Shown here piece after piece: positions 1 through 27,758 of a stretch of DNA of 41,081 bases. The translations under genes and the position numbers were made by a program. The notes beneath the pieces are model-generated. The model had not been told where the DNA came from. It made no database searches and saw nothing but the letters and a program-made list of their open reading frames with translations. Within the stretch, counting starts at the first letter, position 1. Each line of letters begins with the position of its first letter. Origin of the DNA: a virus (lineage: Duplodnaviria; Caudoviricetes); the IMG/VR virus record IMGVR_UViG_3300025875_000784, positions 1-41,081 of that record. The stretch is one strand, 5' to 3'.

Positions 1-471
1 ATGGCTTACGCCAAAGATACCAGTGTTGCGGTCGGTAAGACCGAGGCGGAAATTAAGGCCACCATCCGGCGATATGGCGCAACAGCCTTCGCCTCCTTTG
101 AGGACGACAAGAGCGCTGTGATCGCGTTCCAGATGCAAGGGCGCCGGATCACCTTCCGGCTTCCCTTGCCCGATCCTCAGTCTGAGGAGTTTACGCGCAC
201 ACCGGGCAAGAAGCTGGTTCGCTCCGTTGATCAGCAGATGGCAGCATGGGAGCAAGCGTGCCGCTCCCGCTGGCGAGCGCTGTTCCTGTGCATCAAAGCT
301 AAGCTGGAGAGCGTCGAGGCCGGCATTGAGACGTTCGAGGACGCGTTCCTTGCCCATATCCAGATGCCAGACGGCTTGACGGTTGGCGAGCACGCCCGGC
401 CGATGATCGCGCGAGCTTACGAGACCGGGACCATGCAGCCGCTCCTGCCACCACCTAGTCGACCGCATTGA
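1..471 (+). CDS. Conserved phage hypothetical protein
   Basis: 156 aa ORF; RWRALFLCIKAKLESVEAGIETFEDAFLAHI motif recurs in phage proteins of unknown function. Confidence 0.8.
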   Translation: MAYAKDTSVAVGKTEAEIKATIRRYGATAFASFEDDKSAVIAFQMQGRRITFRLPLPDPQSEEFTRTPGKKLVRSVDQQMAAWEQACRSRWRALFLCIKAKLESVEAGIETFEDAFLAHIQMPDGLTVGEHARPMIARAYETGTMQPLLPPPSRPH

Positions 472-528
472 GCACGGTTTGTTCCCCTTCCCCCTTCTCC
501 CCGACTCACAGGGGTGGTATTGTGGGGC

Positions 529-801
529 ATGATGTTCGAGGTTGTCAGCACAGCCTTTTGGTGGACCGGCGCGGCGGTTTGGGCGTCGGCTACCTTCTGC
601 CTTCTCGCGATTGCATATTCCCTCGCGATTAGGGTGCCAGTCGCACTTCGCTATTGCCGCAAGTTCGAACAGGACGTAGCCGCCATTCGGAACAGGAAGC
701 CGCTGACGCTGCGGGACCGGATCGGGCTGTTTTGGTTCTGCTACACCACGGCGCCCGGGACAATGGAAGACATGCTGAGGCGCGGGCCGATACCGGCTTG
801 A
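529..801 (+). CDS. Small membrane protein (probable moron)
   Basis: Hydrophobic N-terminus; ATG at 529 lies 5 nt after TGGTATTGT (extended -10-like). Confidence 0.6.
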   Translation: MMFEVVSTAFWWTGAAVWASATFCLLAIAYSLAIRVPVALRYCRKFEQDVAAIRNRKPLTLRDRIGLFWFCYTTAPGTMEDMLRRGPIPA

Positions 802-841
802 GCCCATCCCTACCCGCTATCGCTGATGCGGTAGCAACGAG

Positions 842-947
842 ATCGAGGCGGCGACACGGTGAAATTCTTCCAGCCGTAGCACGAAACCGGCATTCTGGTT
901 TCGGAGCGCAATGTGGGTTCCCGGAAGGCCCGCCCGCCTCGATACCA
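842..947 (+). ncRNA. Candidate tRNA-like cloverleaf RNA (not a canonical tRNA)
   Basis: 10-bp closing stem 842-851/934-943 followed by ACCA; three internal hairpins; loop-loop complementarity; G-U pairs favour + strand. Confidence 0.55.
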
Positions 948-952
948 ACACA

Positions 953-970
953 AGCGACCTTCGGGGCGCT
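953..970 (+). other. cUUCGg hairpin 3' of the cloverleaf RNA
   Basis: agcgacc-ttcg-gggcgct (one mismatch); no U tract. Confidence 0.5.
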
Positions 971-980
971 GACCTCTATC

Positions 981-1196
981 TTAAGGTTCTTGATGCTGTT
1001 CGGGAGCCACCGACGCGATCTTATCCACGATGCGCCCCCAAGCTTCAGAGGGGTCCTGCTCGACACGACGAGGAGCGTGGAGCCCCAGGTAAGGCAGGGC
1101 TGCTAGCGCGTCGGCAGGGTTGGGGTCTGCGACCATATGCAGCCAAGCGGCCTCAAATGCTGTTAGGCTGATGCGTCCACCTTTTTTGCGTGTCAT
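981..1196 (-). CDS. Hypothetical protein
   Basis: 71 aa; ATGA overlap with upstream ORF in a compact 3-gene operon. Confidence 0.6.
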   Translation of the reverse strand: MTRKKGGRISLTAFEAAWLHMVADPNPADALAALPYLGLHAPRRVEQDPSEAWGRIVDKIASVAPEQHQEP

Positions 1197-1441
1197 CCGG
1201 CAGACCCAAAGTTGCGCCTCTCAGGAGGAAGCGAGTGCCACCGTACCACCGTGGCGTCGATTTCAGCGCCGTCGCCATCTGGACGAATACACATCCAGTA
1301 CCCTTGCCCAAGCCAGACGGTTTCGATCAGTCCATTCTTTGCGAACTCATCCCAAGCCCATCGCGCGGCTCGGCAATTCGCCGGGGGCCGCCTCTTGTAG
1401 CGGACCCAACTCGTTCGCTCGTGAGCATATCCACCCATCAT
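1193..1441 (-). CDS. Hypothetical protein
   Basis: Start MMGGYAHE at 1441 overlaps the stop of the upstream gene (ATGA). Confidence 0.6.
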   Translation of the reverse strand: MMGGYAHERTSWVRYKRRPPANCRAARWAWDEFAKNGLIETVWLGQGYWMCIRPDGDGAEIDATVVRWHSLPPERRNFGSAG

Positions 1442-1656
1442 AGCACCGCCTTTAGAGCGGCCCGCTGTTCTGGCGTCAGGACGATGTTGCCCAAGGTGCT
1501 GTGCCACCTTTTCCCGCCATACTTCAGCGTGGCTTCCTCAAGTAGAATGCTGATTTTGCCGTCACGCAGTTCAGTGACCTCAACGTAAGCCTGCTTCTGC
1601 TTGTTCGAGGTTTCCGAGAACTCGTGAAACTTACGTTCAGTGTCCAAGTGAGCCAT
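1438..1656 (-). CDS. Hypothetical protein
   Basis: GGAGG RBS before ATG at 1656; first gene after a TTGACG promoter. Confidence 0.7.
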   Translation of the reverse strand: MAHLDTERKFHEFSETSNKQKQAYVEVTELRDGKISILLEEATLKYGGKRWHSTLGNIVLTPEQRAALKAVL

Positions 1657-1689
1657 CGCTATTGCCTCCATAAGCGTCTACGCTTGATT

Positions 1690-1762
1690 ATCATTGCAAC
1701 GTTGATTATTATCTACGTAACGGTGACTTTGCCGTCAAGGGGAAAATCAACGTGGCGTTGAT
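1690..1762. promoter_or_regulatory. Three 17-bp operator-like palindromes overlapping a minus-strand promoter
   Basis: ATCATTG-caa-CGTTGAT (1690-1706), ATCTACG-taa-CGGTGAC (1711-1727), perfect ATCAACG-tgg-CGTTGAT (1746-1762); minus-strand TTGACG-N17-TAGATA. Confidence 0.7.
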
Positions 1763-1802
1763 CAGTTGCGGCATGGAGGCCGGTGCGCTATCGAAAGCGC
1801 CA

Positions 1803-2033
1803 ATGGACGATGAACCATGGCAGCGACGGGCCAAAATGGCTGGTCTCAATCAGAAGACGCTCGCCCACCTTCTGGGGGTGGCGGAGAACACCGTATCCTT
1901 GCAGTTAAGGGGCAGGTGGCAGAGTGGCACCCCCCAATACGTCAAGACGGTTATCCGGGCGTGGGAACGGCTTTCCCCGGACGCGCGACAGGAGCTACTG
2001 CAGGCTGTAGAAGGTGACGACCCCCCGCGCTGA
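1803..2033 (+). CDS. XRE/Cro-like HTH transcriptional regulator
   Basis: AGLNQKTLAHLLGVAENTVSLQL HTH signature; divergent from the 981-1656 operon. Confidence 0.8.
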   Translation: MDDEPWQRRAKMAGLNQKTLAHLLGVAENTVSLQLRGRWQSGTPQYVKTVIRAWERLSPDARQELLQAVEGDDPPR

Positions 2034-2051
2034 TAGATCGAGAGGCGGCGT

Positions 2052-2210
2052 GTGAAGTACCAGTGGCGATTTAGGCATGATCTCCCAGCTTACTGCTGTC
2101 CCTTTTGTGGGGAACAGGTCGGCTACGTTGGCAGAGCGCTTGCTGTGCTATTCGGAACGCAATTCCACGGGTGCGACTTCTCGAACGTAAAATGGCCTCG
2201 TGAGCCGTAG
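2052..2210 (+). CDS. Small Cys-containing protein (52 aa, not in ORF track)
   Basis: GAGAGG RBS, GTG start; VKYQWRFRHDLPAYCCPFCGEQVGYVGRALAVLFGTQFHGCDFSNVKWPREP. Confidence 0.5.
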   Translation: MKYQWRFRHDLPAYCCPFCGEQVGYVGRALAVLFGTQFHGCDFSNVKWPREP

Positions 2211-2227
2211 TGGGATCGATACCCTTC

Positions 2228-2250
2228 CCGCTTCGGCGGTTTTGCGTTTC
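2228..2250 (+). terminator. Probable intrinsic terminator
   Basis: ccgc-ttcg-gcgg followed by ttttgcgtttc. Confidence 0.55.
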
Positions 2251-2395
2251 AGCCGTTAGAAGCTACGGAGCTTGTGTCTCACGGATCGGCGCAGATTATA
2301 GACAAAGGCCCGTTTCCTTCAATCTGGCGCGGTAGTTTATAGTTCGCCGCTTCGGCGGGTGAATGGAGAACACGATGATCGACCCACCCTACTGA

Positions 2396-2605
2396 CTAGC
2401 TTCCACTACGGTTCACTACCTCGGCGTCCGGCCTAAACCTCTCCCAAGCCCTATCCCCCTCCCCTGATATAGGTGGAACAAGAATATCGCAGGGGATCTG
2501 GAACGGCTCGGGACGGCAGCAGCGGAAAGTGACGTGCAACTGGCCTTGGACGTTCCAAGGCCGCCAGCCGGTCACCGGCGCCCGGCATACAGGGCAGATG
2601 ATCAA
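2396..2605 (-). CDS. Small Cys-rich hypothetical protein
   Basis: CPVC...CC; start overlaps the upstream stop. Confidence 0.5.
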   Translation of the reverse strand: MIICPVCRAPVTGWRPWNVQGQLHVTFRCCRPEPFQIPCDILVPPISGEGDRAWERFRPDAEVVNRSGS

Positions 2606-2952
2606 TTGTGCCGAGCAGACATGACGGTGTGGACGACGCGGATTTCCTCACGCACGTCCCGAACCTCGACAAGCAGCTTTTCGAGCAACGCAACCGAAGT
2701 CACGTCCCGCGCGGCACCCTCATTGAGCAGTTTCGTGATGTTCGCCAGATGAACGCCGAGACCCTCAACGGCGTCGGCCATAGCCATGTCCGGGTCAATT
2801 ACGGCACCTGTCGATTGACGGGGCTGGGCATTGAGAACCGGCTTGCGCCATTCCTTGACCACGCTGAGAACCCCAGCGACCAAGGCAGTGACGACGCCGA
2901 TCATTGCGAGCTTGACCGCTTCGCTTTGCTCACTGAACCACTGGTACCACAT
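2602..2952 (-). CDS. Single-TM lysis-region protein (holin/antiholin-like)
   Basis: N-terminal TM segment (LAMIGVVTALVAGVLSVV) plus coiled coil; in lysis cassette. Confidence 0.6.
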   Translation of the reverse strand: MWYQWFSEQSEAVKLAMIGVVTALVAGVLSVVKEWRKPVLNAQPRQSTGAVIDPDMAMADAVEGLGVHLANITKLLNEGAARDVTSVALLEKLLVEVRDVREEIRVVHTVMSARHN

Positions 2953-3388
2953 TCGTGACCTTTCTCCACGCGTTGAAGGCATCCGCCGATGAGCGGAACG
3001 CGTTGCGAATATCCATCACGAAGAACGCGCTATAGAGGGCTACGCCCCAGGAAACGGAGGTCGCCGTGGAAGCCTCGACAGACCGACCCACGCAAGCCCC
3101 GTAGAGCATGCAGCCGGCTATGGCGCCGGCCACTCTCATCAGTCCAGCCCCGATCGGGAACTCCCCGTTGAAAGCCATGCTGACGATGCGCCACAAGCCC
3201 ACGGACAGGAACAACACAGTCCAATGCCGCGGGCCCATGATCTTCACGAAAGCCGCCATTTCCGGCCGTTCAAAGCTTTCTGGCGACAGGAGGCAGATAA
3301 CCCCGATGCACAGGATGACTAGCGCGCATATCCATTCGGGGAACTTGTTGGGTAGGCTGCGACGGAAGCGGCGGTAAAAGGTGGGCAT
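2930..3388 (-). CDS. Multi-TM lysis-region membrane protein
   Basis: About 4 hydrophobic segments; position downstream of the endolysin. Confidence 0.65.
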   Translation of the reverse strand: MPTFYRRFRRSLPNKFPEWICALVILCIGVICLLSPESFERPEMAAFVKIMGPRHWTVLFLSVGLWRIVSMAFNGEFPIGAGLMRVAGAIAGCMLYGACVGRSVEASTATSVSWGVALYSAFFVMDIRNAFRSSADAFNAWRKVTNVVPVVQ

Positions 3389-3809: not shown

Positions 3810-4172
3810 TCAGACGGTGTGAGTGCCTTCGACGCCGCGCTGCATGCGGGCGAGCGTGCGAGAGTGAAGCCAATGCTGTGCTTCCTCAATCTTGGTCAGC
3901 GCCAGCGCGTTCTCTCGGCAGGCATACTGCCCGGCTTGGAACGACCGGAGGCGGTCGGCCACGATGGCGAGAAGCACTTCCTGCGTCAGTCCGTTTATGC
4001 CGTTCTCGTTGATCGGCCCATTCTGGAAGCGAATGTCAACTTTCACTCCGCTGTCTGGGTCGCCCAACACGCGGTAATGATGGTTGGCCCCTCCTGCCCC
4101 TGGTTCATCGAGAACAGCTATAGCGAGGCGGTCGTTAGCCGGATTGACTTGGTGTTCTGTGATCGTGCGCAT
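3810..4172 (-). CDS. tad1: Tad1-family anti-defence sponge protein (Thoeris/CBASS signal sequestration)
   Basis: GAGGANHHY, FQNG, LLAIVADRLRSFQAGQYACRENALALTKIEEA and R..RGVEGT match my recollection of Tad1 motifs ([39 protein letters not shown]); AAGGAG RBS. Confidence 0.85.
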   Translation of the reverse strand: MRTITEHQVNPANDRLAIAVLDEPGAGGANHHYRVLGDPDSGVKVDIRFQNGPINENGINGLTQEVLLAIVADRLRSFQAGQYACRENALALTKIEEAQHWLHSRTLARMQRGVEGTHTV

Positions 4173-4232
4173 CGGCACTCTCCTTGGGTGGATTGAATGC
4201 CCGGAGCCGCCGGGCGCGGATTTCGGGTGCGC

Positions 4233-26355: not shown

Positions 26356-26594
26356 AAGGCAGTCCATCCGAGCCGCCGGCAACGCTCTGGCCAATCGACC
26401 ACGTCGCCGCTTGGCACCATTCGGAAGGTTCCGTTGCCCAGAGGATCCGCGCCGTGGTCTCCGCCCTTCGATATGTCCACCTTTTTCAGGTAAGTATCAG
26501 CGGGCAACCCCATCGCTTCCGCCATGAGCCGCTTTTGGCCACTTGCTGTGCTGTAGTCCTCGCCCCCAGAGCCTGTCTTGCTGCTCCTGCTCAC
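26352..26594 (-). CDS. Hypothetical protein
   Basis: GTGA overlap with upstream gene; GGAGG RBS. Confidence 0.55.
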   Translation of the reverse strand: MSRSSKTGSGGEDYSTASGQKRLMAEAMGLPADTYLKKVDISKGGDHGADPLGNGTFRMVPSGDVVDWPERCRRLGWTAL

Positions 26595-27163
26595 CCCACC
26601 CTCCTGCTTTCGCCCATATCCCCGTCATGGCCTTCGGGATCACCTATGCCGAGGCGGAACTTGATCTGTCCGGGCTCCACGCTCGGATCCCAACGGGCTG
26701 CGCTGGCTGCCTCGCGCTGGCGCTTGAAGGCTTCGGCTTTGGCATCCGGTGTCCGCATAGCGTCCACAGCGCCCGCGAACTGCTGTGCCAGTGCGCGAAC
26801 ACGCTCCCGGCTTTCAGGGGTCTTTGGAATGTCAGGCGGGGGAAGCGCAGGATGGCCAAGACGCTTGCGGTATTCGCTATCGAGGCGGGCGTTCAATGCG
26901 CGCCTCGCGGCTGTGGCAACTTGCGGCGCTGATGGTGCAAACGCTGGGTTCACGCCAGGCTCGGATCCGGTCAGCAGTGCGGTAATGCCAGCGTCAATAT
27001 CCCGCGTTTCGTAGATCGCAAGCGCCTCGAAATAAACCTTGGCCCGCTCAATCCGGTCCGCCCGGATCTGTTCTTCGGAATTTCCGTTAGCCGGTGGCGG
27101 GTAGGTGCGAAATAGCCGCTCTAAAAGTTCCGCCACCTGCATCTGATCGTGGTTCGGGTTCAT
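26591..27163 (-). CDS. Replication accessory protein (P/helicase-loader position)
   Basis: Follows the initiator; FAPSAPQV motif; start MNPNHDQ at 27163. Confidence 0.55.
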   Translation of the reverse strand: MNPNHDQMQVAELLERLFRTYPPPANGNSEEQIRADRIERAKVYFEALAIYETRDIDAGITALLTGSEPGVNPAFAPSAPQVATAARRALNARLDSEYRKRLGHPALPPPDIPKTPESRERVRALAQQFAGAVDAMRTPDAKAEAFKRQREAASAARWDPSVEPGQIKFRLGIGDPEGHDGDMGESRRVG

Positions 27164-27758
27164 TTCGGGCCTCGGCAACATGCTGGAAAATCTGTGACAT
27201 CGTCGGGATTGCGCGGACATTCGATGCTGGCGGCGCACGGACGGGTTGGTCGTTCTTCAGCCATTCGGGCTTGACGCTGGTCCAGCCGCGCACTGCCATT
27301 TCCTCCGCCGCAGCACGGGGATCAGGGCATCGAGAAAGGGCTTTCGAAAGCAGGCGGCCGGTATTGCCGTTGATGGCAGCGCGTTTCTGGCGCCGGCTCT
27401 GGACGATCGTTGCAATCAACTCCGGGTCGAGAACCTCGGAGAGCGCGTTTTGGAAATCGGTGAGGTCGGAAGAGGACGCGCTTGCCGCGCCTTTCTTCTC
27501 TTCCTTACCTTCCTGTTTATTTTCTAAGTTTAGAGTTTTATCTTCTACGCGCGCATCGCCCCCGCGTGGGACGTTGGCTATCGTTTGCTCACGTTGGCTA
27601 ACGTTAGCGGCCTGCTTCTTTTCTTGATGCTTATGCCAACGGGCGCGCTGTTTTGCCTTCCGGTCCTCGTCACCTGCGGCCATGATTTCCATGACAACGG
27701 CGATCTGGTCCGGTGTAAGCCCTGCAGCTATCAAGCGGCGGAAGTCGTCAGGGCTCAA
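27087..27758 (-). CDS. Replication initiator (lambda O-like position)
   Basis: N-terminal LIAAGLT..QIA, RQRARW..H..K helix, internal iterons plus AT-rich tract, C-terminal RGW..VKPEW. Confidence 0.7.
   Translation of the reverse strand: MSPDDFRRLIAAGLTPDQIAVVMEIMAAGDEDRKAKQRARWHKHQEKKQAANVSQREQTIANVPRGGDARVEDKTLNLENKQEGKEEKKGAASASSSDLTDFQNALSEVLDPELIATIVQSRRQKRAAINGNTGRLLSKALSRCPDPRAAAEEMAVRGWTSVKPEWLKNDQPVRAPPASNVRAIPTMSQIFQHVAEARNEPEPRSDAGGGTFRAAISHLPATG
27491..27610. repeat. Probable replication origin: four 10-bp iterons next to an AT-rich tract
   Basis: acgttggcta/tcgtttgctc/acgttggcta/acgttagcgg at 27571-27610; T-rich 27491-27546. Confidence 0.65.

Follow-up and report, generated by a model that had tools for sequence, protein, structure and literature searches.

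In type III toxin–antitoxin systems such as ToxIN, AbiQ, CptIN, and TenpIN, a tandem-repeat antitoxin RNA is encoded upstream of the toxin and co-transcribed with it. Mimics of tRNA include the YrlA Y RNA and allo-tRNAs, and temperate phages P1 and P4 encode C4/CI antisense RNAs, small cloverleaf molecules that are released by RNase P and carry targeting loops. On the protein side, MuF polymorphic toxins join a MuF N-terminal domain to an exchangeable C-terminal effector and are normally followed directly downstream by a dedicated small immunity ORF (PMC5576092). The PBECR and MuF-C domains (Pfam PF18810 and PF18819) are likewise fused to MuF and have a BECR-like fold with a layout of one His plus a Ser/Thr (PMC5512222, section 19). 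The accessible part of the latter work calls Mu's own MuF-C inactive, predicts that the inactive MuF-C binds RNA, and doubts that PBECR domains cut tRNA.

Here, we describe a well-supported family of structured phage RNAs outside Rfam, together with a testable protein partner. Its loci resemble those of the MuF toxins in their MuF N-terminal domain, exchangeable C-terminal effector, and dedicated small gene directly after it; however, the place of a small ORF is taken here by an antisense RNA gene that has its own promoter, and toxicity is predicted. The effector shares a predicted BECR-like fold, the His and Ser/Thr residues, and the MuF fusion with PBECR/MuF-C, whereas the present subfamily falls below all Pfam cut-offs, and the accessible part of PMC5512222 makes no mention of an RNA partner. 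As in type III systems, a structured, pseudoknotted RNA is the proposed inhibitor of a ribonuclease encoded next to it, but here it is a single cloverleaf (with one tandem pair, at locus L145), lies downstream of and antisense to the putative toxin gene, and would act on a toxin borne by a virion protein. With tRNAs and their mimics, the RNA has in common four arms, predicted stacking of P4 on P1, and a contact between the loops in the D and T positions; it differs in that the elbow is a 5–6-bp Watson–Crick helix and in lacking an anticodon, a T-loop motif, a conserved CCA, and any Rfam or ARAGORN match. Similar to C4/CI, it is a small cloverleaf RNA of temperate phages, but the family matches nothing in Rfam, lacks conserved targeting loops, and has no target that we could find, and it has its own promoter rather than release by RNase P.

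In the accessible literature, we came across neither this RNA nor an RNA partner for MuF-PBECR proteins, and an unnamed earlier prediction may be present in published candidate sets (PMC10690425; PMC11109978; PMC5737381; Brewer 2021). The accessible part of a recent preprint (bioRxiv 10.64898/2026.08.28.747851) does not mention an RNA antitoxin.

A four-way-junction RNA in a P22-like provirus

The window, that is, the whole 41,081-nt stretch of DNA analyzed here, is an IMG/VR provirus with a P22-like portal, a terminase, and an integrase. It contains a cloverleaf RNA with the following parts and surroundings:

842–943, plus strand: four-way-junction (cloverleaf) noncoding RNA; 85.6 bits with family model R2, covariation
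842–851/934–943, plus strand: P1 closing stem, acceptor-stem position; sequence varies across the family, with both-side change in 7 of 8 pairs
852–877, plus strand: J1/2 (852–855), P2 (856–860/873–877), and loop 2, D-arm position; sequence conservation is highest here
866–871/923–928, plus strand: kissing helix; present in 11 sequence variants, with all 5 bp complementary in 86 of 89 copies
879–907, plus strand: P3 with internal loop (879–880/906–907; 882–890/895–903), anticodon-arm position; length and loop variable
913–933, plus strand: P4 (913–917/929–933) and loop 4 (918–928), T-arm position; predicted to stack on P1
944–947, plus strand: ACCA 3' of the stem; outside the family features
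810–837, plus strand: weak promoter-like site (810–815 and 832–837; 5 of 12 matches) where the family has its promoter; overlaps the hairpin at 816–835
953–970, no strand assigned: UUCG hairpin, possibly a terminator or 3' protection
801–972, no strand assigned: block with both ends common to a second, lower-depth strain with different flanks (contig branch points 801 and 972, run X1)

A first-pass annotation of the window had delineated the closing stem, the arms, and the loops, all of which lie exactly where it placed them. The hairpin it described upstream also exists, with an extent of 816–835 rather than 810–835, and the one downstream (953–970) was not called by a terminator scan. The plus strand folds with an energy of −46.6 kcal/mol (z −3.19 versus shuffles), compared to z −1.51 for the minus strand. 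A perfect stem of at least 10 bp followed by NCCA occurs once in the window, against 0.15 expected from 40 shuffles; by itself, this combination is only mildly unusual, and the reality of the RNA is settled by its homologs. Arm 3 (P4) is absent from the window's single-sequence centroid structure, and we accept it because of covariation across homologs rather than the single-sequence fold.

The RNA was rightly said not to be a normal tRNA: ARAGORN reported no gene in the window, and the usual tRNA features (7-bp acceptor, 7-nt anticodon loop, T-loop motif) are absent; the family has no conserved anticodon loop. Its suspected novelty with respect to Rfam was also borne out. Rfam 15 covariance models gave a best E of 3.8 in positions 1–3000 of the window and no family over the RNA at E up to 1 at 11 homolog loci; the ribozyme and riboswitch families of Rfam had no match to the RNA in either set. 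Readings as a hammerhead, SRP, tmRNA, or retron RNA were weighed by eye and set aside.

The RNA belongs to a widespread phage family

The window RNA is a member of a widespread family of phage RNAs of approximately 85–125 nt without an Rfam entry, for which we collected about 90 relatives. The first model, a covariance model of the window RNA as the only sequence, matched in 2 of 5 genomes reached via relatives of ORF 1–471, and scores of at least 44 bits came from 5 of 151 genomes belonging to one family. A pattern based on the common core of the first homologs returned 83 viral loci (75 distinct) and, in two proteobacterial classes, 4 of 401 genomes in each. The covariance model matched 80 of the 81 loci submitted to it, and six of the seven new matches from the proteobacterial classes scored 60–96 bits. 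Three weak R2 matches (L164 at 26 bits, L220, and L153) were left out of the counts, and five weak R1 matches as well as L066 (23–25 bits) were set aside as chance. BLAST yielded nothing useful, either with the window RNA against phages and plasmids or with two homologs against phages. Patterns based on the loops or on ACCA gave no matches or chance ones, a metagenome scan found the window's own sequence alone, and 29 relatives of ORF 1–471 had no RNA copy nearby.

When 54 copies were aligned with MAFFT, RNAalifold recovered P1–P4 unprompted, confirming the tRNA-like topology proposed from the single sequence. With the kissing helix included, 96.9% of cells are paired, versus 78.6% in shuffled and 39.5–47.6% in slid controls. 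Both sides change in 21 of 32 pairs overall and in five of the six kissing pairs; the central kissing pair is CG in 29 copies, GC in 17, UA in 5, and AU in 3, and is broken in none of the 54. Homologs thus show compensatory changes that include the loop–loop pairs, and the D/T-like kissing contact of the first-pass annotation holds. Three of the four stems covary along with this helix, and P2 is invariant in the alignment, which is in part an artefact of the search pattern; divergent copies recovered later vary in P2. Divergent copies also vary in the junction bases, and the lengths of P3 and loop 4 differ across copies. The strand of the RNA is fixed by G–U pairs.

Two details of the window copy do not carry over to the family. 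Its P4 has 5 bp, as originally drawn, against a norm of 6 bp (83 of 86 copies), and its ACCA ending, although real, is matched by an encoded NCCA after the stem in just 3 of 86 copies.

Most copies lie antisense to the head operon, just after muF

Sixty of 80 copies lie in Mu-like phages, where they are antisense to the head operon and placed between muF (PF04233), which they immediately follow, and gpG or gpI. No small immunity ORF comes after muF at these loci, where the RNA takes up the gap ahead of gpG or gpI. A sigma-70 consensus is present 5' of 60 of 65 Mu-type copies, compared to 110 of 1847 random sites, and mostly ends 13–19 nt before the junction, a spacing that puts the inferred transcription start at the base of P1. 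Processing by RNase P and at the CCA, as had been suggested for the window RNA, is disfavored by this arrangement, in which Mu-type copies would start at their own promoter, and by the poor conservation of CCA. Among non-Mu copies, the promoter passes in 4 of 16 and is weak in 12 of 16 (the window copy has 5 of 12 matches). These copies lie mostly in phage-like regions, after tRNA-Met, before the terminase, or among early genes. In 10 named Mu-like phages, the RNA was found at the post-muF place in none.

Individual loci show further arrangements. At L056 (1501–1676, minus strand), the RNA starts a few bases past a tRNA-Met, downstream of an antiterminator gene. L145 carries two diverged tandem copies (2429–2541 and 2614–2728, minus strand) near the tape-measure gene and has no domain match. 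In JD024, acrF2 lies one gene beyond the RNA.

The RNA is linked to a predicted BECR ribonuclease domain of MuF

The muF proteins encoded beside the RNA feature a particular C-terminal domain of approximately 125 aa. PF04233 was present in all 11 proteins checked from homolog loci; MuF with an exchangeable C-terminal domain is thus found at the homolog loci, a description that does not apply to the window. The structure model of the domain (pLDDT 94.9) is most similar to CdiA-CT NC101 (Z 6.4, rmsd 3.6, 82 aligned), BrnT (Z 6.3), and the colicin D tRNase (Z 5.9), so that the best matches are BECR toxins including two tRNases, with no Z reaching 8; the best Foldseek E was 0.043. Against Pfam PBECR2, the domain gives E 0.17 and stays below all Pfam cut-offs. 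S38, K44, H49, Y57, and K91 are conserved in 60–64 of 65 domains (H49 in 60), and residue 103 is S or T in 63 of 65. The layout typical of BECR proteins, with a His close to the N-terminal helix, plus a Ser/Thr within the last strand, is present. We predict that the MuF C-terminal domain is a colicin D/CdiA-like (BECR) ribonuclease.

Starting from the RNA, 60 of 80 loci carry the domain, in all cases convergent with the RNA. In 58 of these, the stop lies 51–143 nt from the motif start, and some RNAs overlap the muF stop. The remaining loci comprise four truncated ones, one (L090) with a true PBECR2 at 74.5 bits, and 15 orphans, in which no domain is found within the 1.3–5 kb visible downstream. 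Starting from the protein, we searched with a query built from RNA-bearing muF genes and considered the best 80 of 594 muF loci: 9 of the 14 loci with the domain contain the RNA, against 0 of the 66 without it (Fisher p 8.6e-9, with neighboring DNA being co-inherited anyway), always in the same post-muF slot. Three of the nine positives are contigs that the RNA search had already found. A domain profile built without the new loci gave the same split of 9/14 versus 0/66 among these best 80 of 594, and a tree of their MuF N-domains, read with no formal test, places the nine positives at seven separate positions, beside negative relatives.

Several loci depart from the common arrangement. L055 encodes a stand-alone domain without MuF that is still convergent with the RNA, and L180 has kept an RNA although H49 is replaced by N. 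Phage B23 has the domain at 62 bits with no RNA family match, and L221 has PBECR2 above the cut-off with neither a gap nor an RNA. The window's own prophage had no match to the domain profile, and a PF18810 search gave no signal anywhere in the window, where the controls were likewise silent.

Other cloverleaf RNAs occupy the post-muF slot

BECR-tailed MuF proteins other than these have different cloverleaf RNAs in the slot, including degenerate tRNAs. Within the best 80 of 594 muF loci, four of the five that are domain-positive and RNA-negative contain another closed multi-stem RNA there, three of them with a common second cloverleaf family and one with a third fold; in the fifth (L218), the conserved S, H, and K are lost and there is no gap. 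The second cloverleaf family (L172, L187, and L188; minus strand, just after muF) has its own promoter and no Rfam match at the gathering level. Again among the best 80 of 594, a gap of at least 80 nt follows muF in 33 of 47 long-tailed versus 1 of 33 short genes, and an antisense promoter follows it in 31 of 47 versus 7 of 33.

Folding of 27 further slots revealed a canonical T loop in nine, five of which follow MuF_C-like tips (two of these five below the cut-off); PBECR2 was found in ten of the 26 tips scanned. Two slot RNAs passed as tRNA despite having no valid anticodon (2 of 20 in one scan and 2 of 35 in another). The pseudo-tRNAs with a canonical T loop and an aberrant anticodon arm, on the minus strand after muF, are those of L193, L198, L210, L212, L213, L215, L226, L230, and L247. 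Closed multi-stem RNAs follow PBECR2-tipped muF genes, also on the minus strand, at L171, L173, L176, L179, L202, L203, L217, and L238; the L176 RNA resembles that of L217, and the L179 RNA that of L203. The cultured Ochrobactrum phage POA1180 (L153), a possible test system, has the domain (57.9 bits), and its gap after gp04 contains a smaller closed RNA with three hairpins.

Proposed function and alternative readings

We hold, with somewhat more belief than doubt, that the RNA is a tRNA-shaped antitoxin or decoy for the MuF BECR domain, replacing the immunity protein of MuF toxins. This reading draws on the finding of a tRNA-shaped RNA in the immunity-ORF slot, beside a colicin D-like fold. 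Host sigma-70 polymerase would transcribe the RNA in the lysogen, and stacking of P1 on P4 together with the kissing-helix elbow would give it a tRNA-like L shape without an anticodon or CCA. MuF, a protein of the head that is presumably injected together with the DNA, would carry an active tRNA-cutting domain. The RNA would occupy this domain as a substrate mimic, in place of a small immunity protein, and protect the host cell by binding and neutralizing the ribonuclease. The tRNA-mimic decoy of the first-pass annotation would thereby survive as the best reading, its target being a BECR domain carried by phages instead of an anticodon nuclease of the host.

If so, RNA antitoxins or toxin immunity would gain a new variant. 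The system would account for the way in which MuF-PBECR phages spare their own host with no immunity ORF after muF, and would give anticodon-less phage pseudo-tRNAs a role. It also predicts that tRNA is the PBECR substrate, a point left open in the accessible part of PMC5512222.

The same linkage between RNA and domain would fit an RNA that serves the MuF C-terminal domain as cofactor or cargo, the two forming a ribonucleoprotein that is perhaps packaged in the head and acts on the host. RNA binding has been predicted for inactive MuF-C (PMC5512222, accessible part), and L180 retains an RNA without the histidine. We nevertheless consider this role unlikely, since the promoter resembles housekeeping ones and is directed against the late operon, orphan copies would be left without a partner, and short muF genes manage without the RNA.

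A still less probable reading is that transcription into the muF 3' end silences leaky toxin message in cis, in a type I-like manner, with the cloverleaf merely stabilizing the transcript. The 60 linked copies all converge with muF, some of them overlapping its stop, and unrelated RNAs fill the same slot, as antisense silencing would have it. It leaves unexplained, however, the conserved junction and covarying kissing helix, the canonical T loops of other slot RNAs, and the orphan copies that face no opposing muF.

We give slightly less weight again to a general decoy against host defenses that target tRNA, the idea originally put forward for the window, in which the muF neighborhood would be an accessory hot spot. 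Such a role would suit the orphans in phage regions, some of them by a tRNA or upstream of the terminase, the acrF2 gene of JD024, and the Acb2/Tad1-like gene of the window (below cut-off), but it is at odds with the absence of the RNA from all 66 domain-negative muF loci among the best 80 of 594 and with the lack of a conserved anticodon loop. A ribozyme, ligand-binding RNA, or phi29-like packaging RNA is very improbable: the RNA does have the features named as criteria in the accessible part of PMC5737381 (multistem junction, pseudoknot, and conserved bases at the junction), and the location among head genes would fit, but no ribozyme or riboswitch family matches, the RNA is missing at this place from 10 of 10 named Mu-like phages, and the junction bases differ in divergent copies.

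The C4/CI-like antisense role also suggested earlier does not hold up, as there is no conserved free loop and no target within the window, where the longest complementarity between RNA and phage is 14 nt and falls against a stem strand. This match, to the P1/P4 strand, lies at 26878–26891 inside ORF 26591–27238 and is probably due to chance.

Beyond the antitoxin reading itself, we entertain, with more doubt than belief, a wider picture in which transposable phages run a polymorphic toxin system in which RNAs supply all of the immunity factors. Every BECR ribonuclease tip would have its own tRNA mimic, from pseudo-tRNAs that have hardly changed to the base-paired-elbow family, and other prophages would collect orphan immunity RNAs.

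The window copy and its surroundings

In what is the weakest step of the argument, the window copy may be such an orphan, giving the lysogen immunity to the MuF domains of other phages; we read it this way because the domain profile found no such domain in the window. On a contig identical to the window (L039), the 3' part of a tRNA-Gln(CTG), at 60–125, lies between the integrase end and ORF 1–471 and, judged by eye, is likely the attP. This remnant by the integrase places the RNA in an accessory region adjoining the attachment site.

The second strain, seen in run X1, has different DNA at 534–801 beside the same flanks and, past 972, a sequence resembling the window from 2034 onward. The strain difference around 801–972 indicates that the flanking ORFs are exchangeable. 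A partnership between the RNA and the product of ORF 529–801, proposed in the first-pass annotation, is disfavored by this replacement and by the lack of relatives of the ORF. A 7-bp direct repeat (966–972 and 2027–2033) delimits a cassette at positions 973–2033 that contains three small ORFs on the minus strand together with an HTH gene; the second strain in run X1 appears to be without this cassette. A short block at 481–534 with a promoter-like site, common to three X1 contigs that then diverge, looks like a cassette boundary. In the lysis region, positions 3810–4178 on the minus strand encode an Acb2/Tad1-like protein (PF24729 at 22.3 bits, with a cut-off of 27; phrog_2428), possibly an anti-defense nucleotide sponge.
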